A DNA stretch of 36,051 nt from a virus (lineage: Duplodnaviria > Heunggongvirae > Uroviricota > Caudoviricetes). Below, piece by piece: positions 499 through 35,763 of this stretch. The notes under the pieces are model-generated. The model saw only the letters and a program-made list of their open reading frames with translations. It was not told where the DNA came from and searched no databases. Made by a program: the position numbers and the translations under genes. Each line of letters begins with the position of its first letter. The first letter of the stretch is position 1. The DNA lies in the IMG/VR virus record IMGVR_UViG_2579778871_000005. One strand, written 5' to 3'.

Positions 499-1221
499 TT
501 ATTTAGGGTAAGCCTGAACTCGGAACAACTTACTGTTAAGATGCTGACGCGCACGTTTATCCAAAAAGCGGATATAGCGGAACTGTTTATAACGATGTCT
601 CGTTGCTTTATCCAGATTTGCTCGAAGGTACTCTCCGCGTTTGCCACCACGAACTAGCGCCGTTCTACATATCTCATGGTAAAACTCACCATCCAATTCA
701 TAAAACGTAGAGAAATGGCTACCGATGTAGTCAAAATTTGCAGCCTGATACACTACGCCTGAACGGCCACAACGCTCATCCGCAAATGTTTGAACCCATT
801 TAACTTGTGGATAAAGAATGGAGATGAGCTTCAGTGAGTAAGCTAAGACACGACTTTCAGTATTGCGGGGCTGGCTGTCGTGAATCCACATTCGATTGAG
901 TTCCATATACTCCCGGTTGCCGGTCCCGAGTACCACTCGTGCGCCGCTGTTGGGGTTTAATGCATAACCGAACTGTAATACTCCAACCAAATTTCTCCCC
1001 GCAAATACCCCGAGATGCAAGTAACTGTTGTTAACAAACCGCCTGGAATAATGCTTATCTTGAATAATAGACCTGGCCAGCCAGCAACTGATGGTTTCTA
1101 CACGCAGTTCTGTGCAACCATATCCCACGATATCATTCTGATCCTTGATTACGCCGCGAGGGCTTAATACACGAGAAACCTTTTGAGCCATAATAACCTC
1201 TCGTCTGGCGCTCAAAGGCAC
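499..1221 (-). CDS. mom: Mom-like DNA modification protein (start may be the internal Met at 1191)
   Basis: 240-aa ORF containing [13 protein letters not shown], which matches the Mom motif I recall from phage Mu (..IYKAANFRYLG..); sits immediately downstream of, and overlapping, a Com-like zinc-finger ORF as in the Mu com-mom operon. Confidence 0.7.
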
Positions 1222-1333
1222 TCAATTCGTTTACAAACCCGCAGCGCGGGCATTTTATTTGCACCTCAATAACCTGCCCCTTGAATAGCAGTTTTGAGCA
1301 TTGCGTACATCTGACATGCATTTTGTCTGTCAT
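1133..1333 (-). CDS. com: Com-like zinc-finger translational regulator of mom
   Basis: Sub-ORF of 1133..1501 starting at ATG 1333 ([36 protein letters not shown]...), a CxxC...CxxC zinc ribbon resembling Mu Com (..IRCKNCNKLLFKA..IRCPRCK..); its 3' end overlaps the mom start. Confidence 0.55.
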
Positions 1334-1378
1334 TCTGCAAACCTTTTTCAGTATGTGAAAAACTGATAGGCTTACCGG

Positions 1379-1394
1379 ACTGATGGCCATCAGT
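1379..1394. promoter_or_regulatory. Perfect 16-bp palindrome ACTGATGGCCATCAGT upstream of com (candidate regulator binding site)
   Basis: Read directly from the sequence in the 145-bp gap between the stop at 1479 and the com start at 1333; a second inverted repeat CCAGAGTC..GACTCTGG lies at 1439-1466. Confidence 0.3.
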
Positions 1395-1478
1395 GGCAGC
1401 CTTGGGCGGCTCGCAGGCGCATCCTGCGGGTTAGCTGGCCAGAGTCTGGTTGCAGCCTGACTCTGGTCGCTGTTTTCC

Positions 1479-1931
1479 CTATAACGTCTTATTTTGAACA
1501 CTACTGGCTAGCGCGTGGAGTATGTTAGGTGAGTAACGCCAGCTATCGACCAGTCCGAGGAAATCTGCACAAAACTCACTGCAGAAATACTTATCCTCTC
1601 GCCCACGATTGAAAACAACAAACCCCACAGCACCCAACCAGTCGTATTTCAATTGGTCATTTTGCTGGAAGAACTTCTCAACGCGGGCAGGTGATGCCCT
1701 TGTCAGTATCAAATCCCATTTATCGCGCGGCAGCGGCATTTGCTTGCAGCGCACCCCCTTGTCACGCACCGACGACGAATAACAAACAAACTCACCGTTA
1801 CCCAGGTCAACGGCCAGCTCGCAGTGAGAATACTCACCCCGCGTCACCAGTCGCGTCAGCCAGTCGGAAAGCCGTGCAAACCCATGATGATCTTCTCGCC
1901 CTTTATAGAACGCCAGATACACCTGCTTCAT
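1479..1931 (-). CDS. Permuted papain-like (YiiX/YaeF-type, NlpC/P60 superfamily) protein, putative
   Basis: ORF 1479..1940; likely ATG at 1931 overlapping the upstream stop (ATGA). His-containing motif YSHCELAV early and C-terminal Cys motif KYFCSEFC, the order expected for permuted papain-fold enzymes. Assignment by motif only. Confidence 0.45.
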   Translation of the reverse strand: MKQVYLAFYKGREDHHGFARLSDWLTRLVTRGEYSHCELAVDLGNGEFVCYSSSVRDKGVRCKQMPLPRDKWDLILTRASPARVEKFFQQNDQLKYDWLGAVGFVVFNRGREDKYFCSEFCADFLGLVDSWRYSPNILHALASSVQNKTL

Positions 1932-2554
1932 GGTTGCCACCCCGTGGAGTAGTCATACGCCTGAACTGCCTGGATATCTTCCAGCGCCTCAACGGCGGCA
2001 ATATGCCGCTGGGCATTGGCAAAGAGGCGCATATCGTGATCCATTGTAACGGACTCAAACTGCGCCGCGATTTCATTGGTCAGCTCAAGAAGTCCGAGGT
2101 TTTTGGTCTGCCACATTAAGCCTTTGGGGATTTGCTTTGCCTGTCCCATTTTAGTCAGTGACATCTGCTGGATACGGCTACTGGCATCGCTGTGGAAGTG
2201 GTAGTCACCAATCACAATATAATCGGCAGTGACTTCGTCTCGTTGTGCTTTTATCGCTTGTTTAACTTGCGATTTAGCGTTATTAAGCTCGAGGGCAAAT
2301 CTGGCTACGTCATATACCCATACCTTTCCGTCTAACCGGTAAAAATCCCCTGGGGGTAATGTGGTGGTAAACGTTCTGTCTTCAACATTAACCCAGACAT
2401 ATTCCCCTTGATTGAAATGTTCAAGCCATTGTTGCTCAGTTAATTCAATCAGACTTGTTCTCTCTGGATAACAGAATAACTCGGTATCCATCCAATCCAG
2501 AACACGTAAGGATGCAGGATCGTAGTAAGCATATTTTGACATTATCTTCACCAA
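1928..2554 (-). CDS. Tail fiber assembly protein (Tfa)
   Basis: 208-aa ORF immediately downstream of the tail fiber gene with overlapping start/stop; size, position and C-terminal ..YDYSTGW.. are typical of Tfa chaperones. Confidence 0.6.
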   Translation of the reverse strand: MVKIMSKYAYYDPASLRVLDWMDTELFCYPERTSLIELTEQQWLEHFNQGEYVWVNVEDRTFTTTLPPGDFYRLDGKVWVYDVARFALELNNAKSQVKQAIKAQRDEVTADYIVIGDYHFHSDASSRIQQMSLTKMGQAKQIPKGLMWQTKNLGLLELTNEIAAQFESVTMDHDMRLFANAQRHIAAVEALEDIQAVQAYDYSTGWQP

Positions 2555-4164
2555 TAAATTCTGACGATACCAGAAGAACCATTCGATCCATTATTAAGAA
2601 CCCAGTCACCTAGATACCCCCGGTTACTGGCACTGGAGCTACCACCTGCACCACCTGCACCGAAGCCATTTGCATTAGATGGTAATGAACCAGCTATTAT
2701 CTCTGAACGTTCTAATGTGACATTCCCAGGGATTCCACCTTTACCTAAGATAGAATCACTCCCTCTTAGCCCTAGAGTTACATACTCTTCCTTACGCCCG
2801 CCTCCATTCCCATCAGAGGGGAGAAATCTTATTACATTTCCTCCTGTACACCCTGCTACACCTCCATCACCACCTGGTACATTCAGATATGCAAAAGAGG
2901 ATTGTCCTCCAGCGTTCCCGTTATAACCTATACCTTGTGAGCCGCTGCCTTTCGCACCTCCGCTACCGCCTACACCAACCATTACAGGTATCTGACTTTT
3001 TGGTGCAACATCAACATAACCAGCAATACATCCGGCAGCGATTCCCCCTGTGGAACAAACATTATTTGCTGATGAACCTCCGGCTCCGCCACCACCACCA
3101 CCAACAACCTCAACAAAGATCTGCGTCACCCCATCCGGTACAGTAAAAGTCCCATTAGCCGTAAAAAACTGATAATGGGAGTGGTTGGCTGGAGCTGCCG
3201 CACTTGCCTTGTCATACGCCGCCTTAACTGCGCTCGGCGTCGCCGCTTCCGTCGTGCTGTTACTATTCGTAGAGCTATTAAGCTTCACAACTCCTTTCTG
3301 TGCCGTCGTGGCATCCGGAACGTCGGTAATTTGATTCCAGGGGTGCGAATGATTTCCCGCCGCCTTACCATTCGCCAGGTCATACGCCGCCTTAACAGCA
3401 CTCGGTGTCGCTGCCTCTGTCGTATTGGTACTGTTCGTCGCACTATTAAGCTTCACAACCCCTTTCTGCGCCGTAGTGCCATCCGGCACCCCGGTAATAT
3501 CGCCCCACGGATGTTTATGCGCTTTATCAGCCCCAGCTTTTTCCAGTGCCTCATTCGCCTTATCCATCGCCGCCTTCACCGCCTTCGGCGTTGCTGCCTG
3601 CGTTTCCAGCGTGCTATTGGTTGAGCTGTTAAGCTGCGTAAAGCCTTTCTGCGTCAGCGTCGCGTCCGGGTGATTATGCGATCTTTCGTGCTCTTCAATA
3701 CTGGAGTCCACATAATCTACCGTTGCCATCACCAGTGATGGATCAACCATCAATGTCACAGCCGCCGCGTTCGTCACCTCCATCACCGCACGGATCACAA
3801 TCTGCTTACTGGCCCCGGCAGGCAGCTTCGGCTTATAGGTTTCCGGGAACTTGCCAATGGCGATCAGTACGCCGTCCTTATCCAGCAATCCCACCTCGCG
3901 GATATACCAGCCGCCGACTGATTCCGGCAGTACCGCCTCGGCAATCACCCACGCCGGGTTTTCCGGGGCGATTTTCAGAGTATTCAGTGGCCCGCGCCAG
4001 ACTTCACGCACCACCTTTGTCTGGCTCTCTTTCGGTTCGGCATACTGCCCACCGCCGTCGCCAACGACCATTGTTTGCAGCACTATCTGCTTTTGTTCCG
4101 CCAACGCCGCCGCGATTTTCGCGCGGCCAGCGGCGGTTAAAATGGTAAAAAATTCACTCGCCAT
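2548..4164 (-). CDS. Tail fiber protein
   Basis: 538-aa ORF; N-terminus MASEFFTILTAAGRAKIAAA... resembles the conserved N-terminal domain of Mu S / P2 H-type fibers; three in-frame tandem repeats (..AQKGVVKLNSSTNS..TTEAATPSAVKAAYD..HSHPW..ITDVPD..) and a Gly-rich C-terminal domain. Confidence 0.8.
   Translation of the reverse strand: MASEFFTILTAAGRAKIAAALAEQKQIVLQTMVVGDGGGQYAEPKESQTKVVREVWRGPLNTLKIAPENPAWVIAEAVLPESVGGWYIREVGLLDKDGVLIAIGKFPETYKPKLPAGASKQIVIRAVMEVTNAAAVTLMVDPSLVMATVDYVDSSIEEHERSHNHPDATLTQKGFTQLNSSTNSTLETQAATPKAVKAAMDKANEALEKAGADKAHKHPWGDITGVPDGTTAQKGVVKLNSATNSTNTTEAATPSAVKAAYDLANGKAAGNHSHPWNQITDVPDATTAQKGVVKLNSSTNSNSTTEAATPSAVKAAYDKASAAAPANHSHYQFFTANGTFTVPDGVTQIFVEVVGGGGGGAGGSSANNVCSTGGIAAGCIAGYVDVAPKSQIPVMVGVGGSGGAKGSGSQGIGYNGNAGGQSSFAYLNVPGGDGGVAGCTGGNVIRFLPSDGNGGGRKEEYVTLGLRGSDSILGKGGIPGNVTLERSEIIAGSLPSNANGFGAGGAGGSSSASNRGYLGDWVLNNGSNGSSGIVRIYW
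3169..3663. repeat. Three tandem ~140-bp in-frame repeats inside the tail fiber gene
   Basis: Near-identical DNA blocks (for example gccgccttaac.gc.ctcgg.gtcgc.gc.tc.gtcgt...ctattaagcttcacaac.cctttctg.gccgt) recur at about 3230-3330 and 3375-3480, mirrored by the protein repeats. Confidence 0.7.
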
Positions 4165-6386: not shown

Positions 6387-6878
6387 TTAATGAGAGTGAT
6401 GGTTGGTATTGCCGCCTGCGTCGATGATAGTGCCTGACGCATTGATATTGCCGTTAACCTGAATATTGCTATTAATCGTGGTCAGCGGTGCGGTAATAGT
6501 GATACTGGTTTTCACCTCAATCACGATTTTTTCAATGCCGCCATTAACGGTAAGTTGGTGCTGTTTGCGATCATACTCAATCGCGGCCTCATCGGAGAAC
6601 CTCACATAGCGCTTGTCTTTGTCAGTCACCGGCGGCGTATCGACCGACGAATAGACAGCCCCCAGCACCACGCCATCCTCGCCGTTATCATCCAGCAGAA
6701 CCTCCACCTGCTCGCCAATATCCGGGAGCCAGTAGTCCTTATTGTCCTGTGTATTGCGTTGCAGGATGGGGAGCCAGTTGGTACGCAGATCGTCGCATTC
6801 CGGCAGGGTGACGCGCACACACACCTTCACTTCGTCGATATCGCTGATAATACCGGTCTGTCGGGTTACGCCTTTCAT
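6387..6878 (-). CDS. Baseplate spike/assembly protein, P2 gpV-like
   Basis: 163-aa ORF upstream of the W-like gene with a beta-rich, repeat-like C-terminus (..ITITAPLTTINSNIQVNGNINASGTIID..) typical of spike proteins. Confidence 0.6.
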   Translation of the reverse strand: MKGVTRQTGIISDIDEVKVCVRVTLPECDDLRTNWLPILQRNTQDNKDYWLPDIGEQVEVLLDDNGEDGVVLGAVYSSVDTPPVTDKDKRYVRFSDEAAIEYDRKQHQLTVNGGIEKIVIEVKTSITITAPLTTINSNIQVNGNINASGTIIDAGGNTNHHSH

Positions 6879-7993
6879 TGTGTCTCCTGCGTTGTTGTAC
6901 CGTCAGGGTGATAAACGGTCAGGGTGTCGGGCTTTTTATTCTTACGTTTGCCGGAGCCAGAGCTGCTGCCCGCCGCCGTTTTCGGGCCGCGTCCAATCTC
7001 GATCTCCGTACTGTACCCTGATGAACGGTCGAACGAATGGCGGGCGCTGGTGATAAGCCACTCCCCGGAGAGCACTCCGAACCCGTCAAGATTGATTTTG
7101 TTCCCGGCGATAAGCTGCGTGTTACCCATCATGGAGAGCGAACCGGTCTGCTGATACTCGTTATGATCATCCAGCGCCGCCTCGGCTTTCACCTGTGCCG
7201 TCCCCTGATCCGCCGCCCGCGCATTGACCTTGAGCGTATCGGCGCTGGTTGATTTACCGCGTGGGGCGGTACTGCTACTGCCATCGGCGTTATAGGTGAT
7301 CAGTTCCTTATCCTTACTCTTCTGATGCGCCACCTTTGCATCCTTATAGATGCGGTTGATGGTATCGCGCAGCGACCATCGCGCCACATCCTGCGGCGTC
7401 AGCGTCGTCACCGGCGCATTGCTGCGCAGCGTGGCCAGATGGGAAAACACCAGCTCATCAGTGGTGACTTTCAGCGCGTAGCCATACTCACCCGCCAGTC
7501 GCTTCAGAAAGCCGACGTCTGTCTCCGCGTATTGCGTCACCCGATCAATAGTAATTGGCTCTATCTGGCCAACCAGCTTCAGGCCGTGCTTCTGTGCGAT
7601 ACGGCTGGCAATCGCATCCAGCGTCGTTTCTTCGTAGCCCTCGCTGGACGCGGTGCGCAGGGCGCTATTGACCGACGTCGCCACGCCGCGAATGGATACC
7701 GTATCCGGCGGTGCGCCCAGCTCAATCTCATCGATGGAGAACGATCCACAGTCCAGCAACGCTTCGCCCTGATAACCTAACTTCAGCATCAGCATATCGC
7801 CTTTGCCCGGATACCAGGCATCCCGCCAGCGCCCGGCAGTGTCTTCCACCTGCACGTCGATTTCATCCGACTCGCTCTTGAGACTGTCGGTATACGTCAC
7901 GCTCAGGACAAAAGGCGCAATATCGTGGGTGATATCTTTCTGCCCGTAAAACAGGGTGAAAACGGGGGTGATAACGGCATTTACCTGAGCCAC
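6875..7993 (-). CDS. Tail protein, P2 gpD-like (baseplate hub / late control D family)
   Basis: 372-aa ORF following the X-like and U-like genes after the tape measure, the P2 T-U-D order. Confidence 0.65.
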   Translation of the reverse strand: MAQVNAVITPVFTLFYGQKDITHDIAPFVLSVTYTDSLKSESDEIDVQVEDTAGRWRDAWYPGKGDMLMLKLGYQGEALLDCGSFSIDEIELGAPPDTVSIRGVATSVNSALRTASSEGYEETTLDAIASRIAQKHGLKLVGQIEPITIDRVTQYAETDVGFLKRLAGEYGYALKVTTDELVFSHLATLRSNAPVTTLTPQDVARWSLRDTINRIYKDAKVAHQKSKDKELITYNADGSSSTAPRGKSTSADTLKVNARAADQGTAQVKAEAALDDHNEYQQTGSLSMMGNTQLIAGNKINLDGFGVLSGEWLITSARHSFDRSSGYSTEIEIGRGPKTAAGSSSGSGKRKNKKPDTLTVYHPDGTTTQETQ

Positions 7994-8199
7994 GGTGGCA
8001 CCTCATCAACATCATGCACCTGCATCGGCCCAATCACCGGGATACGCAGCCGCAGCCCGGAGGCCAGCGTGGGCGTGATCGCAATATGCGGATTAGCGAT
8101 AATGATGCGCTCATAGCCCATCGGATCGCCATAATAGCGGAACGCCAGATTATCCCAGCGTTCACCCTCGGTGGTGATATGTTCAATCCAGCCGCCCAT
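7981..8199 (-). CDS. Tail protein X-like (small LysM-like tail protein)
   Basis: 72-aa ORF (MGGWIEHITTEGERWDNLAFRYYGDPMGYERIIIANP...) of the size and motif pattern of P2 gpX-family proteins. Confidence 0.55.
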   Translation of the reverse strand: MGGWIEHITTEGERWDNLAFRYYGDPMGYERIIIANPHIAITPTLASGLRLRIPVIGPMQVHDVDEVPPWLR

Positions 8200-29379: not shown

Positions 29380-30330
29380 ATGGCACGTCAAAAATCACAA
29401 CCCGCCGAACTGGTGCCGGATGCGCCGCTGGACGCCGAACTGAACGTCGGACTGAATGCGCTGGCGGAACACCGCATTGAGATTATGCAACAGTTCGGTG
29501 ACGGCCTGCCGTATGAGCGTGACCGCGTGGTGCATGAGGCACGGTTTTATATGTCGCAGAGCGCCGAGGCAATGCTGGAAGCGGGTAAGCGGCTGGTGAT
29601 ACTGAAAGAGAATGAACCGCATGGGGAGTTCACGGCAATTGTCACTGAACAGTTGGGGCTAGGTGACCGGGCTGCACGCCGTATGATGCAGGCGTCTATT
29701 AAGTACCTTTCACCTACGCTTGAGTCAAAACGGCCAACGTTGGCCGTTTTGGGTAAGGCTAAATTATTTGAACTGGTATCAGAGGATGACGAAGACCTTA
29801 CAGCATTAGCCGAAGGCGGCACCGTCGCTGGCCTGACACTGGACGACGTAGATCGCATGAGCTGCCGCGAACTCCGCGCCGCTCTGCGTGAAGCCCGCGA
29901 GGACGCCGACGCCCAGCGCCGCGTTCTGTCCGATAAGAATGACAAAATTGACAAACTCTCCACCCTGCTCGCCAAAAAGTCCCGAATCGCGCCGCCGCCC
30001 CCGGATGTAGAGGACGAGCAGTTGCGTAAGGAAGTCATGGCTATCGCCTTCGAAGCTGAAGCCATTATTCGCGGCAAGCTCTATGAGGCCTTCACCGTAT
30101 TGAATCAGCATCATTCGGAACTGGTTCAGACGCATCCCTACGCCTTTATGACGGGCCTGCTGTGTCAGATTGACAGCGCCACCACCTATCTGCGCGAAGA
30201 GTTTGGCCTTGCTGCTGAACCACGCAGTGACGCCGCGCCGGAGTGGGTAACAGACCCCACGCCAGAGATTGATCGCCCGGAATGGATGAATGCTTCAGAT
30301 TCAGAACCTGTTCAGGCGGATTGTATATGA
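29380..30330 (+). CDS. DUF3102-like early protein
   Basis: 316-aa ORF directly upstream of the transposase; motif ..GKRLVILKENEPHGEFTAIVTEQLGLGDRAARRMMQAS.. matches the pattern I associate with DUF3102 proteins of Mu-like phages. Confidence 0.55.
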   Translation: MARQKSQPAELVPDAPLDAELNVGLNALAEHRIEIMQQFGDGLPYERDRVVHEARFYMSQSAEAMLEAGKRLVILKENEPHGEFTAIVTEQLGLGDRAARRMMQASIKYLSPTLESKRPTLAVLGKAKLFELVSEDDEDLTALAEGGTVAGLTLDDVDRMSCRELRAALREAREDADAQRRVLSDKNDKIDKLSTLLAKKSRIAPPPPDVEDEQLRKEVMAIAFEAEAIIRGKLYEAFTVLNQHHSELVQTHPYAFMTGLLCQIDSATTYLREEFGLAAEPRSDAAPEWVTDPTPEIDRPEWMNASDSEPVQADCI

Positions 30331-32072
30331 GCGCCGTCATGACCGAACGCTTAGTTGCTTTTGCTCAGGCTGCGCGGCAGGCCGGGCATGGTACACGAGG
30401 CGCAATCTATGCTGCCGCCTGCGCGGAGTTGGGCCTTTCCCGCGCCACGCTGTTACGCAAAATCAAGGAAGTCGCCGTGACTGATAATCGTAAGCGCAGA
30501 ACAGACGCAGGGAAAACCGCGCTGACCCGCGACGAGGCGGTGATGATATCCGCGACACTGATGGAAGCCACTCGTAAGAACGGCAAGCGCCTGTATTCCG
30601 TCGCCGACGCCGTGGAAATGTTACGCGCCAACAACGAAATTGACGCCGGGCGACTGGATGAAGAATCCGGTGAATGGATGCCGTTGTCGGAAAGCACCAT
30701 TATCCGGGCGCTACGCGGCTACGGCCTGCACCCGGATCAGCTCAGTCAGCCCGCGCCGGTGACGGAACTCGCCAGCCTGCACCCCAATCACGTCTGGGAA
30801 ATCGACGCCTCGCTCTGCACGTTGTACTACCTCAGCAATGGACAGCATGGCTTACAGGTGATGGACAGTTCGAAGTTCTACAAGAACAAGCCGAAGAATC
30901 TGCAACGTATCGCCAGTGACCGGGTATGGAGTTACGAACTGACCGACCACACCAGCGGCTGGATCTACGTTGAATACGTGATGGGCGCGGAGTCTGGCGA
31001 GAATCTTTGCTCAGTGCTGATAAACGCCATGCAGGAGCGCGGCGGCGCGGATGTGCTTCACGGCGTACCGCATATGCTGTATCTCGACCCCGGCTCGGCT
31101 AACACCGCGGCCATGACCAAAAACCTCTGCCGTTCGCTGGGCATTGACGTGGTAGCACATAAAGCCCACAACGCCCGCGCCACCGGGCAGGTGGAAAAGG
31201 CGCGTGACATTATCGAGCGCCGCTTTGAACCGGGGCTGAAGTTCCAACCGGTTCATAGTCTGGAGGAACTGAACGCCAAAGCGAAGCTGTGGCGGCAGCA
31301 CTTCAACGCCACCGCCATTCACACTCGCCACGGCAAGTCGCGTAGTAACGTCTGGATGACCATCACCACGCAACAGCTTATCAAAGCGCCATCGGTGGAT
31401 GTATGCCGCGAACTGGCCGTTGCCGCGCCGGAAAGCCGCAAGGTAACACCAAAGCTGCGCGTCTCCTTCCGGGGCGCTGAATATGATGTGTCGTCGGTGC
31501 CGGGTGTGATGGTGGGTGAGAAACTGATGATCACCCGCAATCCGTGGCGCACTGACGCTGCGCAGGTAGTTCTTATCGGCGACGATGGCCATGAGTATTT
31601 TCATCTGGTGGAAGAAGTTCGTAAGAATGAATACGGCTTTGCCCAGGATGCTGCGGTACTGGGCCAGAACCATAAGCGCCACGCCGATACACCAGCGCAG
31701 ACTGCTGCTAAACAAATTGAGCAGATTGTTACCGAAACGGATAACGAGACTGACGCAGCCGCTGCGCGTAAAGCGAAGGCGCTGCCGTTCGGCGGCAGGC
31801 TCGACCCGTACAAACCGATCACCGACAGCGAACTCCCCGCGTTCCTACCGCGTCGCGGCCAGGATTCTCTGGTACGCGCCCCACGTATTGAGGAAAGGCT
31901 TTTAACTCACGTTGAAGCTGCGAAGGCGCTGAAAGCGCGTCTGCCGGAATGGAGCGTAGCAGTGTATCAGGAACTGGTGAAACGCTGGCCAGAAGGCGTG
32001 GCGGAAGAAGAACTGGACGCCGCCGCGCAGCAGCTTACCGCCCGAGTGCAACTGAACGTAGTCGGTGGTTAA
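30327..32072 (+). CDS. DDE transposase (Mu A-like function, integrase-core fold)
   Basis: ORF 30282..32072; ATG at 30327 overlaps the upstream stop (ATGA); candidate catalytic residues in ..VWEIDASLC.., ..LYLDPGSANT.. and a downstream Glu; followed by an AAA+ ATPase gene, the transposase/ATPase pairing of Mu, IS21 and Tn7-type elements. Confidence 0.8.
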   Translation: MSAVMTERLVAFAQAARQAGHGTRGAIYAAACAELGLSRATLLRKIKEVAVTDNRKRRTDAGKTALTRDEAVMISATLMEATRKNGKRLYSVADAVEMLRANNEIDAGRLDEESGEWMPLSESTIIRALRGYGLHPDQLSQPAPVTELASLHPNHVWEIDASLCTLYYLSNGQHGLQVMDSSKFYKNKPKNLQRIASDRVWSYELTDHTSGWIYVEYVMGAESGENLCSVLINAMQERGGADVLHGVPHMLYLDPGSANTAAMTKNLCRSLGIDVVAHKAHNARATGQVEKARDIIERRFEPGLKFQPVHSLEELNAKAKLWRQHFNATAIHTRHGKSRSNVWMTITTQQLIKAPSVDVCRELAVAAPESRKVTPKLRVSFRGAEYDVSSVPGVMVGEKLMITRNPWRTDAAQVVLIGDDGHEYFHLVEEVRKNEYGFAQDAAVLGQNHKRHADTPAQTAAKQIEQIVTETDNETDAAAARKAKALPFGGRLDPYKPITDSELPAFLPRRGQDSLVRAPRIEERLLTHVEAAKALKARLPEWSVAVYQELVKRWPEGVAEEELDAAAQQLTARVQLNVVGG

Positions 32073-32081
32073 GGGGGAGTT

Positions 32082-33206
32082 ATGCAGATTAAACAACAGT
32101 TGCGCCAGCGTGGCATCACTCAGGCAGCAGTAGCACAGGCTACCGGGGTTTCCGCAGCGGTTATCGCGCAGATGGTTAATCACGGCCTGTGGCCGAAAAC
32201 AGAAGAACTACGGGAGCGCATCAGCGCATTTTTGGCAGAAAAAGGTATTGAACTGAAAGTGGGACAGGCAGCGGCCACTGCCTGCCCCGATACCGCATCC
32301 ACAAGGGACGAAAATATGTTACTGGCAAAACAGGTATTAAATCCAGCGGCGAAGAAACATTTTGGGCTGTTCCGCGACCCGTTCGCTGATGAAGTCATGC
32401 AGAGCGCGGACGATGTATTCACCACGCCGGATATCCGTTATGTGCGCGAGGCGCTGTACCAGACTGCGCGTCACGGCGGGTTTATTGCGGTGACAGGTGA
32501 ATCCGGCGCAGGGAAAACCACGCTGCGCCGTGACCTGGCTGACCGCATCAACCGCGAAAACGCGCCCGTTATCATCATCGAGCCGTATATCATCGCGATG
32601 GAAGACAACGACGCAAAGGGTAAAACCCTGAAAGCTGCCGCCATAGCAGAAGCCATCATCAACACCATCGCGCCGCTGGAGAACGTCAAACGCTCGCAGG
32701 AGGCGCGTTATCGCCAGTTGCACCGGGTGCTAAAGGAATCGGCCCGTGCCGGGTTCTCACATTGCCTTGTTATCGAAGAGGCGCACTCGCTGCCGGTGCC
32801 GACGCTCAAGCACCTGAAACGCTTCTTTGAGCTGGAAGATGGCTTTAAGAAACTGCTGTCGATAGTGCTGATTGGTCAGCCTGAACTGAAGCTGAAACTG
32901 TCCGAACGTAATCAGGAAGTGCGTGAAGTGGTTCAACGTTGCGAGGTTGTCGAACTGCTGCCGCTGGACAACTATCTGGAATCGTTTCTGGCGTTTAAAT
33001 TTCAGCGTGCCGGAAAAGGAGTTTCAGAGGTGCTGGATGATAGCGCCGCCGATGCTATCCGCGCCCGGCTGTGCAATTCATCCCGACGCGGTGACGTCAG
33101 TCTGCTGTACCCGCTGGCGCTGGGGAATCTGGTTATCGCTGCAATGAATCTGGCTGCTGATATCGGCGTACCCGTAGTGAATGCCGATGTGATTAAAGGA
33201 GTGTGA
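32082..33206 (+). CDS. Transposition ATPase (Mu B-like AAA+ protein) with N-terminal HTH
   Basis: 374-aa ORF; Walker A ..VTGESGAGKTTL.. and Walker B-like ..HCLVIEEAHSL..; N-terminal HTH-like segment (..LRQRGITQAAVAQATGVSAAVIAQMVN..). Confidence 0.8.
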   Translation: MQIKQQLRQRGITQAAVAQATGVSAAVIAQMVNHGLWPKTEELRERISAFLAEKGIELKVGQAAATACPDTASTRDENMLLAKQVLNPAAKKHFGLFRDPFADEVMQSADDVFTTPDIRYVREALYQTARHGGFIAVTGESGAGKTTLRRDLADRINRENAPVIIIEPYIIAMEDNDAKGKTLKAAAIAEAIINTIAPLENVKRSQEARYRQLHRVLKESARAGFSHCLVIEEAHSLPVPTLKHLKRFFELEDGFKKLLSIVLIGQPELKLKLSERNQEVREVVQRCEVVELLPLDNYLESFLAFKFQRAGKGVSEVLDDSAADAIRARLCNSSRRGDVSLLYPLALGNLVIAAMNLAADIGVPVVNADVIKGV

Positions 33207-33208
33207 AA

Positions 33209-33337
33209 ATGGTATTTCACAAATTAACCGGAAAGGACGTGATGCAATACCGCAAGATATCGCTGGCTGACCGTTTTGTATTATGGGCCAGCGCTATAAC
33301 TACACTGATTTTTATATTCATAGCCTTATTTAATTAA
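33209..33337 (+). CDS. Possible 42-aa single-TM peptide (below the ORF-track size cutoff)
   Basis: ATG at 33209 preceded by AAGGAG (33196-33201); translation MVFHKLTGKDVMQYRKISLADRFVLWASAITTLIFIFIALFN; lies in the 200-bp gap after the ATPase gene. Hand-translated. Confidence 0.3.
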   Translation: MVFHKLTGKDVMQYRKISLADRFVLWASAITTLIFIFIALFN

Positions 33338-33408
33338 TTCAGGTCGCAGAAAAATGCCGTCAACCCGGCAGGCTTCGCACACCCTGAAATCACCCTGGAG
33401 ACTATTTT

Positions 33409-34026
33409 ATGACTGAAAAAACTATCCCCGCAGGTTACTGGCAGGACGCCAAAGGTTGTCTGGTTCCCGAGTCTATGATCAAGCCCATTGACCGCGCACG
33501 CGATGCGCTGGTGAAGGAGATCGTCGCCGACGCAATGAAAATGAATGCTGAATTACTTGAGTTTAAAAACCGCTGTTTTGGCGATATACAGGCGTTTATT
33601 GATTTGTCCGTTGAACAATATGATGCCCGCCCCGGAGGCAAGAAAGGCAACATCACCCTGCATTCATTTGATGGTCGCTACAAGATCCAGCGCCAGATTG
33701 CCGAAAACATCGCCTTTGATGAACGGTTACAAGCCGCCCGTAACTTGATTGATGAGTGCCTGCATGAGTGGACGGCACAGGCCACGCCAGAGCTGAAGGT
33801 CATTGTGGAGAAAGCATTCGCAGAAGATAAAGAGGGCAACATCTCCACCGGGCGCGTACTGGCGCTGCGCCGCTATGAAATCACCGACCCGCGCTGGCTG
33901 AAGGCGATGGAGGCCATTGGCGAGTCGGTACAGGTGGTGAACTCAACAAGTTACGTGCGGGTTTATCAGCGCATCGGTGATAGCGATAAATACCAGCCCG
34001 TCGTGCTGAATATTGCGGGGGTGTGA
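33409..34026 (+). CDS. DUF3164-like early protein
   Basis: 205-aa ORF in the semi-essential early region; size and position match the DUF3164 proteins common in Mu-like phages; assignment by recollection. Confidence 0.5.
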   Translation: MTEKTIPAGYWQDAKGCLVPESMIKPIDRARDALVKEIVADAMKMNAELLEFKNRCFGDIQAFIDLSVEQYDARPGGKKGNITLHSFDGRYKIQRQIAENIAFDERLQAARNLIDECLHEWTAQATPELKVIVEKAFAEDKEGNISTGRVLALRRYEITDPRWLKAMEAIGESVQVVNSTSYVRVYQRIGDSDKYQPVVLNIAGV

Positions 34027-34027
34027 G

Positions 34028-34222
34028 ATGGCGACGATTAAATGTGTGTACTGCAAAAAAGAAGTCACTGAACTGGATTTTCAGCAGGCCAGCTTATTTC
34101 AGACTGATGAATATAAGGAGTGGTGTGTAAATTTAATTTTGCTCTGTCCGCACTGCGAGCAGGCTTATAACGCCTTTATTCCCACGATGGAATTAACCCC
34201 GGCAACGGAGGTAGGCGCATGA
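34028..34222 (+). CDS. Small zinc-ribbon protein
   Basis: ORF 34013..34222 (first codon TTG); ATG at 34028 gives MATIKCVYCKK...LLCPHCEQAY with a CxxC...CxxC arrangement. Confidence 0.45.
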   Translation: MATIKCVYCKKEVTELDFQQASLFQTDEYKEWCVNLILLCPHCEQAYNAFIPTMELTPATEVGA

Positions 34223-34497
34223 AAACGCTTATCTACCGTGCAGCCTTACTCAAGTGGGGGCCGGAGAAACAACTGGCGAAGCTGGCCGAGGAAGCAGCCG
34301 AACTCAGCGCCGCAGCCGCGCGTGGTTTGACAGGCTTCTGTGATGAAGCTGTGCTGGCGGAGGAGATTGCCGATGTGGAAATCATGATCGAACAGTTCCG
34401 GCAGAACGGTATGGACAAGCTAATCGATTATCGAAAAGCGAAAAAGCTGGCGCGGCTGGCAGAATGGTTGGGAGTAGTAAATGATGATGTTTGTTAA
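34219..34497 (+). CDS. MazG-like nucleotide pyrophosphohydrolase, putative
   Basis: 92-aa ORF with EExxE-type acidic motifs (..LAEEAAELSAAAARG.., ..EEIADVEIMIEQ..) characteristic of small all-alpha MazG-family proteins. Confidence 0.55.
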   Translation: MKTLIYRAALLKWGPEKQLAKLAEEAAELSAAAARGLTGFCDEAVLAEEIADVEIMIEQFRQNGMDKLIDYRKAKKLARLAEWLGVVNDDVC

Positions 34498-34774
34498 ATG
34501 CCCAGCCTGCGGGAAATATGCCGAGAAAGAAGTACCGTTTCGCATTGGCGACAAAGTGAGTTTTGCCTGGCAGCAAGTATCTATGAGCGCTCGTAACACT
34601 CGCATCAGAATAACGACAAAAACAGGGAAAATAACCAGCGTCAATAATGATTCAGCGGTTGTCCGTTCCCGTGGCAAGGATTACTGCCTCGATAAAAGCT
34701 GCATATCTCCAGCAAATGAACCATCGGTATTAACCGTAAGGATGGTTGGGATCTGCCAGTGTGCTGACGTGTAG
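34481..34774 (+). CDS. Hypothetical early protein with N-terminal CxxC
   Basis: 97-aa ORF (MMMFVKCPACGKYAEKEVPF...) overlapping the end of the MazG-like gene. Confidence 0.4.
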   Translation: MMMFVKCPACGKYAEKEVPFRIGDKVSFAWQQVSMSARNTRIRITTKTGKITSVNNDSAVVRSRGKDYCLDKSCISPANEPSVLTVRMVGICQCADV

Positions 34775-34828
34775 CCACATTGATCATCCGGCGGTTGTGC
34801 CTGTCATAACCGCCTCACGGAGGAATGA

Positions 34829-35233
34829 ATGAACAGAGCACAATTATTGCGGGTTATCCATGTTGCCCGGCGAGAGCTGCGACTGGATGAGGCTACGTAT
34901 CGACAATTACTCAAAACACACTGCGGCGGGGAATCATTACGGGTAATGAGCGACTCACAACTGGCTAAGGCTTTCGCTGTGATGAAAAAACAGGGCTTCA
35001 AAGTCACATCTAAAGAGCCTCCTTCCTATGATAAGCAGTCTGCGATGATCCGCGCATTATGGAAGGAACTGGCGTCCAGCGGTACGGTTAGAGATGGCAG
35101 TTTGTCAGCGTTAAATAAGTTCGTACAGCGCCAGACAGGTGTCGCCCGGCTTGAGTGGCTGAATAATCAACAGGCTAGCCAGGTGATTGAACAACTGAAA
35201 AAATGGCTGGCGCGTGTCGGGAGGAGAAGATGA
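34829..35233 (+). CDS. GemA-like protein (Mu gp16 family)
   Basis: 134-aa ORF; ..LLRVIHVARRELRLDEATYRQLLK..., the pattern I recall for GemA-family proteins, located immediately upstream of mor as in Mu; GGAGG before the ATG. Confidence 0.55.
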   Translation: MNRAQLLRVIHVARRELRLDEATYRQLLKTHCGGESLRVMSDSQLAKAFAVMKKQGFKVTSKEPPSYDKQSAMIRALWKELASSGTVRDGSLSALNKFVQRQTGVARLEWLNNQQASQVIEQLKKWLARVGRRR

Positions 35234-35610
35234 AAGAACCGCAACAGCCAGAAATCTTTGCTGACCTTGCGCACCATGTCGCGAGCACGTTGCAAGAAAT
35301 GGTTGGAATGGAAGATGATATAGCTGAACAAATTGCTGTAGCTGTTGCTAACCGCATGATGCAAGCATGGGGCGGGCAAACCATCTACCTGCCCAAAGGC
35401 ATGGTCTTCATGACATCGGCGCGGGACTACAAAATCTGGCAGGAGTGTGATGGACGCAACTACCGCGAACTGGCGAAGAAGTACAACCTGACTTTGCAGT
35501 GGATCTACAAAGTAGTGAAAAAGATCCAGCGTTCTGAAAGCGCCCGCCGACAACTCCCATTATTCTCTATCACTGATGAACCTGAAGCAGTAAAATCAAC
35601 CCTGAAGTGA
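35230..35610 (+). CDS. mor: Mor-like transcriptional activator (Mor/C family)
   Basis: ORF 35203..35610; ATG at 35230 overlaps the gemA-like stop (ATGA), preceded by GAGGAG; C-terminal ..RDYKIWQECDGRNYRELAKKYNLTLQWIYKVVKK.. matches the Mor/C-family HTH region. Confidence 0.65.
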   Translation: MKEPQQPEIFADLAHHVASTLQEMVGMEDDIAEQIAVAVANRMMQAWGGQTIYLPKGMVFMTSARDYKIWQECDGRNYRELAKKYNLTLQWIYKVVKKIQRSESARRQLPLFSITDEPEAVKSTLK

Positions 35611-35649: not shown

Positions 35650-35763
35650 GTATCTGAAAAGCAATTACAGAAACCGTCCCGTTAAAACTCACCTCACCCC
35701 ATCTAATCCCATAATTATCGTGCAGATGATGGTGGGTTTATCTCACTTCTGATTAGGAAGCGT

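Follow-up and report, generated by a model that had tools for sequence, protein, structure and literature searches.

The stretch of DNA analysed here (the window) is the 36,051-nucleotide Caudoviricetes record IMGVR_UViG_2579778871_000005 of IMG/VR, and the gene under study lies on its minus strand at positions 1479-1931, where an original prediction made from the sequence had placed a permuted papain-like gene of the YiiX/YaeF type coupled to a tail fibre assembly gene. The plus strand reads tcat at 1928-1931, that is ATGA on the coding strand, so that the ATG of the gene (1931-1929) overlaps the TGA (1930-1928) of a 204-amino-acid (aa) open reading frame (ORF) upstream. The RefSeq annotation of E. 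coli A35 contains both coding sequences with the identical overlap. The overlap suggests that translation of the enzyme gene is coupled to that of its upstream neighbour. Three plus-strand ORFs run antisense across the gene (1609-1782, 1691-2119 and 1740-1952); the minus-strand frame is supported because its protein is conserved and its ratio of nonsynonymous to synonymous substitution rates (dN/dS) is low. The two predicted motifs are present in the product in the order His then Cys, as YSHCELAV at residues 34-41 (with H36) and KYFCSEFC at residues 114-121 (with C117 and C121).

A deep search for the protein returned 212 homologues, of which 56, down to 42% identity, were aligned to assess conservation. 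Sixteen positions were invariant in the alignment (H36, E38, S54, R56, D57, G59, V60, R61, W72, Y96, D97, F116, C117, S118, E119 and P135), and they include both predicted catalytic residues, His preceding Cys in 56/56 sequences. The gene is under purifying selection, with dN/dS of 0.06-0.18 in the pairs with unsaturated dS, to which the calculation was restricted. Among clusters formed at 50% identity, an exhaustive search with a hidden Markov model (HMM) matched 3,096 at E <= 1e-3, of which 1,356 reached E <= 1e-10, and nearly all of the best 150 matches listed were stand-alone proteins of approximately 135-190 aa. Neither Pfam nor NCBIfam has a model for these proteins, which form a functional enzyme family with no curated model so far.

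Searches with the single sequence produced no match in Pfam, NCBIfam or PADLOC (the PADLOC defence models at E <= 10), and phmmer against PDB returned noise only; a profile and a structure model were therefore needed. The family profile built from the 56-sequence alignment matched PDB 3KW0 (E 1.7e-4), with an alignment that covers both the 'SH' strand and the 'CSEF' helix. This entry is BcPPNE of B. cereus, a permuted papain-like enzyme with a hydrophobic S1 pocket (PMC3142127). The AlphaFold2 (AF2) model of the protein, with a predicted local distance difference test score of 80 and a predicted template modelling score of 0.78, shows a papain-like alpha/beta core in which C117 heads the helix 117-124, packed on an antiparallel sheet, and H36 lies within the strand 34-42. 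Foldseek recovered 3KW0 from this model with probability 1.0, and the closest structural neighbours were YiiX and BcPPNE, not deconjugases. In hhalign, H36, Y96 and C117 paired with His49, Tyr115 and Cys128 of YiiX, whose catalytic roles are described in PMC3142127. Y96 is invariant, and the 'KYDW' that contains it pairs, by alignment only, with the 'PYDF' that holds Tyr115 of YiiX, so that Y96 is predicted from sequence to be the fourth catalytic (oxyanion) residue. Taken together, the profile match, the Foldseek result and the invariant H36, Y96 and C117 bear out the predicted permuted papain-like fold, and the identity of the protein as an enzyme of this group with a Cys/His dyad and the signature Tyr is well supported.

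The narrower assignment to the YiiX/YaeF type held in part. YaeF and YiiX are the nearest relatives, but the enzyme gave no Pfam match to PF05708 (Peptidase_C92) even at E <= 1, whereas the positive controls YiiX and YaeF scored 167.8 and 44.6 bits against a cut-off of 27. It also lacks Glu as the third residue of the catalytic triad, the aligned column being Ser/Ala or Tyr, and no signal peptide or other export signal was found in it. YiiX and YaeF begin with hydrophobic export-type N-termini; the enzyme, with neither signal peptide nor lipobox, should therefore remain cytoplasmic. Thus, the enzyme resembles YaeF/YiiX most and is not a formal member of Peptidase_C92; the most fitting description is a separate clade within the permuted NlpC/P60 group, carried by phages, compact and with a modified third catalytic position. 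The original prediction had also considered that the protein could turn out to be a conserved fibre chaperone. This is not the case, since it matched neither of the chaperone families Caudo_TAP and DUF4376 in Pfam, the chaperone is a separate gene upstream, and the gene is conserved beside fibres with its catalytic set intact.

The features of the locus are collected in Table 1. The genes on the minus strand follow the order baseplate V-W-J-I, tail fibre, DUF4376 gene, enzyme gene, spacer, com and mom.

Table 1. Features at and around the enzyme gene in the window
Feature	Position	Strand	Description and evidence
Enzyme gene	1479..1931	minus	150 codons + TAA; permuted papain-like cysteine enzyme, NlpC/P60 superfamily, YiiX/YaeF-like
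Predicted catalytic set of the enzyme	His36, Cys117, Tyr96		Invariance, profile, model
ATGA overlap of enzyme start with chaperone-gene stop	1928..1931	minus	Sequence; same in RefSeq
DUF4376 tail-fibre chaperone-type gene	1928..2542	minus	204 aa; Pfam E 3e-11
Tail-fibre gene	2548..4164	minus	538 aa; collar N-terminus, fibre repeats, glycine-rich C-terminus; Phage_tail_fib E 7e-58, Phage_fiber_2 E 1e-50
Intergenic spacer	1391..1478	minus	88 bp, from enzyme stop to RefSeq com start (1390)
com and mom	499..1390	minus	Zn-ribbon translational regulator (com) and adenine-modification gene (mom); separate downstream unit at prophage end

The upstream gene had been taken for a tail fibre assembly gene, and its product is indeed of the DUF4376 chaperone type, for which gp27 of Alteromonas phage V22 is the precedent, a DUF4376 protein experimentally shown to be an intermolecular tail-fibre chaperone (PMC7289586). 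On the other side, the enzyme gene is the last gene of the fibre operon, because the spacer and, further downstream, a promoter-like site follow it. This sigma-70-like site (1359-1332) lies inside the com ORF of RefSeq (1133-1390), upstream of an ATG at 1330. The zinc-ribbon homology of Com begins past this ATG, and mom (499-1191) overlaps com by 59 bp; the true start of com may be the ATG at 1330, and the promoter-like site may be the equivalent of Pmom. A consensus scan revealed no promoter-like or terminator-like site between the chaperone and enzyme genes, the 3′ portion of the chaperone gene contained no sigma-70-like promoter, and no terminator flanked the enzyme gene. The GC content of the enzyme gene (0.53-0.545) is like that of the phage backbone. 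A DNA block of approximately 70% identity, which joins the 3′ half of the chaperone gene to much of the enzyme gene (its 5′ half in most matches), is present in 210 of 5,426 E. coli genomes (208 others). A low-GC patch at 2200-2800 (0.40-0.43 against 0.55-0.60 in the backbone) comprises the C-terminal tip of the fibre and the N-terminal half of the DUF4376 chaperone, and has the appearance of a host-range module exchanged by recombination.

The window is identical to the chromosomes of two of the 5,426 complete E. coli genomes, in which an element of approximately 35 kb is inserted between grxA and ybjC. Host sequence runs up to 415 on the grxA side and starts again at 35756, the element (416-35755) begins with 5′-TAAAGCC and ends with TGATTA-3′, and GGAAGC is present at both junctions (410-415 and 35756-35761), which makes a 5-6 bp target-site duplication typical of transposition. 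The insertion lies 2-3 bp before the start codon of ybjC (35764). One end has genes for an rve transposase, a MuB-like ATPase, DUF3164, GemA and Mor and the other has com/mom, which marks the element as a transposable prophage of the Mu type. Its early genes lie on the plus strand at 29380-35610 (DUF3102, rve transposase, MuB-like AAA ATPase, DUF3164, GemA and Mor) and run rightward, and the late genes examined (baseplate, fibre, chaperone and enzyme), together with com/mom, are on the minus strand between 499 and approximately 29000, and run leftward. In phage Mu, by contrast, all genes run in one direction; the divergent layout seen here presumably resembles that of BcepMu-type transposable phages. 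A gpD-like gene for a 'phage late control D family protein' (approximately 6875-7994, minus strand) is annotated in RefSeq as a frameshifted pseudogene in the identical prophage of E. coli A35; the prophage may thus be defective for tail assembly.

To place the gene among its relatives, the context of the closest ~160 loci, taken from species-representative genomes and IMG/VR, was compared, and the order of fibre, chaperone and enzyme recurred across them. In ~129 of 164 loci, the start of the enzyme gene and the stop of an upstream ORF on the same strand (approximately 200-260 aa) overlap by 1-14 nucleotides (nt), most often by 4 nt (69 loci) or 8 nt (38 loci), less often by 11 nt (11 loci) or 1 nt (8 loci). 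Among the 138 unique proteins encoded immediately upstream (-1), 63 belong to DUF4376 and 22 to the Caudo_TAP fibre-assembly family, and by their C-termini these proteins form at least three unrelated classes; at -2, a tail-fibre gene stands in at least 70 of the 99 unique loci. The gene at +1 is heterogeneous: DNA methyltransferases (in Mu-like right ends), which are the commonest downstream neighbour (26/115 loci), tail sheath (P2-like), lysis genes, unknowns and opposite-strand genes. The trio was found in Haemophilus SuMu, Moraxella Mcat phages, Pasteurella Pm86, a Pseudomonas siphovirus, a P2-like and another myovirus prophage of E. coli, and metagenomic phages. Most carriers are temperate phages or prophages. 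The gene is also present in Ralstonia jumbo phages and in a 146-kb T4-like contig, where it overlaps a small ORF following an 898-aa protein, with prohead protease and capsid genes adjoining; no lysogeny genes were seen near the T4-like and jumbo phage copies.

Several loci deserve separate mention. Bergeriella denitrificans (L024, L025 and L045) and Spirabiliibacterium pneumoniae (L015, L038 and L053) each carry three copies of the trio, apparently in different prophages. In a P2-like prophage of E. coli L725 (L170, 6212-7410), a DNA adenine methylase gene follows the enzyme gene with a 4-nt overlap, and the two genes have been inserted together, with the fibre chaperone on one side and the sheath gene FI on the other. 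In an uncultured Kingella metagenome-assembled genome (L044:5509-6531), a 340-aa ORF has a DUF4376-type C-terminal domain (NAERHKAAMLKAENPLEYDYSSGW) in frame with the enzyme; this is either a natural fusion of chaperone and enzyme or an artefact of the assembly or of a frameshift. Other apparent fusions were rejected: the long ORFs of L110 and L112 arise artificially by in-frame read-through from upstream, and P0129 and P0247 have unrelated or chimeric N-termini, so that only L044 looks true. Two wider associations were likewise discarded. A specific partnership with DUF4376 does not hold as a general rule, since chaperones of at least three unrelated classes precede the enzyme and DUF4376 occurs and works without it. 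The link to com/mom or to downstream methylases is positional and typical of Mu-like right ends, many loci having unrelated +1 genes; Mu itself has Mom and is not known to carry the enzyme gene.

For its function, we favour by a modest margin the reading that the product is a cytoplasmic thiol enzyme, an accessory acyl hydrolase or transferase of the late operon that acts on a lipid-type acyl substrate in the infected cell. The enzyme would be co-expressed with the late fibre operon during lytic growth, coupled to the chaperone. His36 on its beta-strand would activate Cys117 at the helix N-terminus, the Cys117 thiolate would attack an acyl ester or acyl amide, giving a thioester intermediate, and Tyr96 would stabilise the intermediate until water (in a hydrolase) or an acceptor (in an acyltransferase) resolves it. 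By analogy with relatives, candidate substrates may include membrane phospholipid, a lipoprotein or a precursor of lipopolysaccharide (LPS) or lipooligosaccharide (LOS). A substrate of the acyl or lipid type is the best guess, since all permuted relatives characterised so far work with acyl chains; LRAT/PLAAT, RID and CLN5 are further permuted relatives that do so. Since the enzyme is conserved and its neighbours are highly variable, the substrate is more likely a conserved molecule of the Gram-negative cell than a particular fibre or chaperone.

Several points weigh against this reading. The third triad position, Glu64 in YiiX and BcPPNE, corresponds to Ser53 in HMMER, with Ala in several homologues, or to Tyr51 in hhalign; judging from the alignment, E38, S52/S54 or D57 could substitute as the polar residue that orients His. 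Confidence in the AF2 model is low around residues 11-30 and 100-115. The expression proposed above is read from gene layout only, and the promoter scan was a crude consensus scan. A cytoplasmic enzyme would have limited access to envelope targets. Some copies lie away from fibres, one solitary in the Ralstonia jumbo phage RP12, one after a gpD-like gene and one near MuB. Finally, 24 of 50,697 phage records carry the gene, a distribution that fits a dispensable cargo gene equally well, and phages Mu and P2 presumably lack it. Because of these two observations, and because DUF4376-assisted fibre maturation proceeds without it, the enzyme is accessory and non-essential for fibre assembly.

This accessory distribution also suits the foremost alternative, a lysogenic-conversion moron that is expressed from the prophage and alters an envelope lipid, lipoprotein or receptor of the host, causing superinfection exclusion or another host phenotype; we regard it as unlikely, although it ranks ahead of the other alternatives. 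Consistent with it, the gene sits at the junction of the fibre module with variable downstream content, its carriers are mostly temperate phages or prophages, and the copy in the P2-like E. coli prophage lies beside a Dam methylase at what we take to be the equivalent of the Z/fun site. The start of the gene, however, overlaps the stop of an upstream late gene in approximately 80% of loci, the missing promoter and terminator consensus and the backbone-like, not foreign, GC content both argue against a moron, and copies occur in T4-like and jumbo phages with no lysogeny genes seen nearby. The original prediction had called the location a classic cargo position: the accessory nature of the gene agrees with this, but across lineages the gene behaves as an integral part of the late fibre cassette, at its 3′ end, and not as a strain-specific moron, because of the overlap, the backbone GC content, the lack of a promoter or terminator of its own in the scan and the copies in lytic-type phages.

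Somewhat less probable again is a peptidase or isopeptidase directed at the fibre or its chaperone, which might cut the chaperone or set it free, attach or take off an acyl group, or strip a host-attached ubiquitin-like tag from tail proteins to counter Bil-type defence; Bil systems reportedly conjugate a ubiquitin-like protein to the phage tail fibre. The position and co-translation of the enzyme with the fibre-chaperone pair, the single DNA block in which the chaperone 3′ half and the enzyme gene move among the 210 E. coli genomes, and the one possible in-frame fusion in L044 speak for such a role. On the other hand, at least three unrelated families supply the partner chaperones and the fibres differ widely, with no common substrate motif evident, the nearest structural relatives are the lipid-pocket proteins YiiX and BcPPNE and not deconjugases, some copies are not beside fibres, and Mu and P2 are not known to carry the gene. 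In phage V22, DUF4376-assisted fibre maturation takes place without such an enzyme (PMC7289586).

A more speculative and slightly fainter prospect is that the enzyme is a dedicated partner of the fibre module, one that edits either the fibre or chaperone (by acylation, deacylation or removal of the ubiquitin-like tag) or a receptor precursor (lipid A-core/LOS) at the cytoplasmic face of the membrane. Editing of the receptor precursor, if true, would let new fibres and progeny escape trapping, and partnership with the fibre module would, if true, be an undescribed enzymatic step in phage host recognition.

It is improbable that the protein is a peptidoglycan endopeptidase or amidase, the classical role of NlpC/P60 proteins, acting in lysis or in penetration of the wall by the virion. 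Membership of the NlpC/P60 superfamily, the tail-associated NlpC/P60 peptidases known in phages (PMC7824862) and the position of the gene directly ahead of lysis genes in some phages would fit, but the topology is permuted, the hydrophobic S1 pockets of the closest relatives are considered unsuited to peptides (PMC3142127), the protein has no signal peptide, cell-wall-binding domain or fusion to a structural tail protein, and the canonical NLPC_P60 model of Pfam gave no match.

PHROGs assigns the enzyme to phrog_1128, 'enoyl-CoA hydratase/carnithine racemase-like', and this label has spread to phage and bacterial records, among them SuMu gp51, Pm86 ORF70 and RP12 ORF176. A metabolic enzyme of the enoyl-CoA hydratase or carnitine racemase type, for which inherited annotation text in PHROG 1128 and several GenBank records speaks, can be dismissed, since 150 aa is far below the length of a crotonase, no crotonase model of Pfam or NCBIfam matched at permissive E-values, no crotonase was among the fold matches, and the fold and profile results refute it. 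The mislabelled family merits correct annotation and a profile model of its own.

Tail-fibre cassettes are the most engineered and studied region of phages, as they control host range and the retargeting of phage therapy and tailocins, and they are usually regarded as consisting of a fibre and a chaperone. The present results add a third, enzymatic gene that rides with the cassettes of many temperate phages of Enterobacterales, Pasteurellales, Neisseriales and Moraxellales, and of some lytic-type phages. Literature searches found no account of the enzyme family beside fibre genes, and no description of a systematic tie of a permuted NlpC/P60 clade to fibre/chaperone cassettes was found in the searchable literature; the main text of the SuMu genome and proteome paper does not name the homologue gp51 among the identified virion or lysate proteins. 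If host lipids, lipoproteins or LPS precursors are the substrate, the enzyme would represent a new step in phage-host interaction, and if the fibres are, it would change the understanding of fibre maturation. As the enzyme is small and soluble and has obvious catalytic-dead mutants, these possibilities are easily tested.

Among known systems, the enzyme stands closest to the YaeF/YiiX proteins (PF05708; E. coli YiiX, PDB 2IF6; BcPPNE, PDB 3KW0), with which it shares the same permuted core. In both, the His lies on an early strand, the Tyr in mid-chain and the Cys at a helix N-terminus near the C-terminus, and the motifs 'SH', 'xYD', '[FY]CSE' and 'DGVR' are common to both. The enzyme (150 aa) is approximately 30-50 residues shorter than YaeF/YiiX (180-202 aa) and, unlike them, is phage-encoded and tied to fibre-chaperone cassettes. 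YiiX was crystallised with a fatty acid in its hydrophobic S1 pocket, and such a pocket, known in YiiX, BcPPNE and PPPDE1, was judged unsuited to peptides (PMC3142127). More distant relatives are LRAT/PLAAT (H-RAS-like suppressor) and the picornavirus 2A H-box/NC proteins; the enzyme has FCSEF in place of the NCEHF motif that marks LRAT/PLAAT, and it lacks their C-terminal transmembrane anchor.

Permuted enzymes that act on lipids are also known outside phages. The type VI secretion system effectors Tox-Act1 and TseH are permuted NlpC/P60 phospholipases (PMC12994826). These are secreted, periplasm-acting toxins with cognate immunity genes, whereas the phage enzyme has no adjoining immunity-like gene and no secretion context, and its structural similarity to them is much below that to YiiX. 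In S. aureus, LnsA is needed for lipoprotein N-acylation, a role that is genetically proven and depends on a partner (PMC7387801). LnsA is a YiiX-like permuted NlpC/P60 enzyme that works on the outer face of the Gram-positive membrane with a partner of the CPBP family, and it offers a functional analogy for an enzyme that cooperates with the product of a neighbouring gene.

In its position, the gene recalls the phage morons at the fibre/tail junction, such as P2 Z/fun, which occupy the same place as the enzyme gene in P2-like prophages and are accessory as it is; the site in these prophages, flanked by the fibre chaperone and the sheath gene FI, is one that we take to be the Z/fun site of P2. 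The enzyme gene differs from morons of this type in that no promoter or terminator of its own was detected, its GC content is like that of the backbone, and its start overlaps the late gene upstream.

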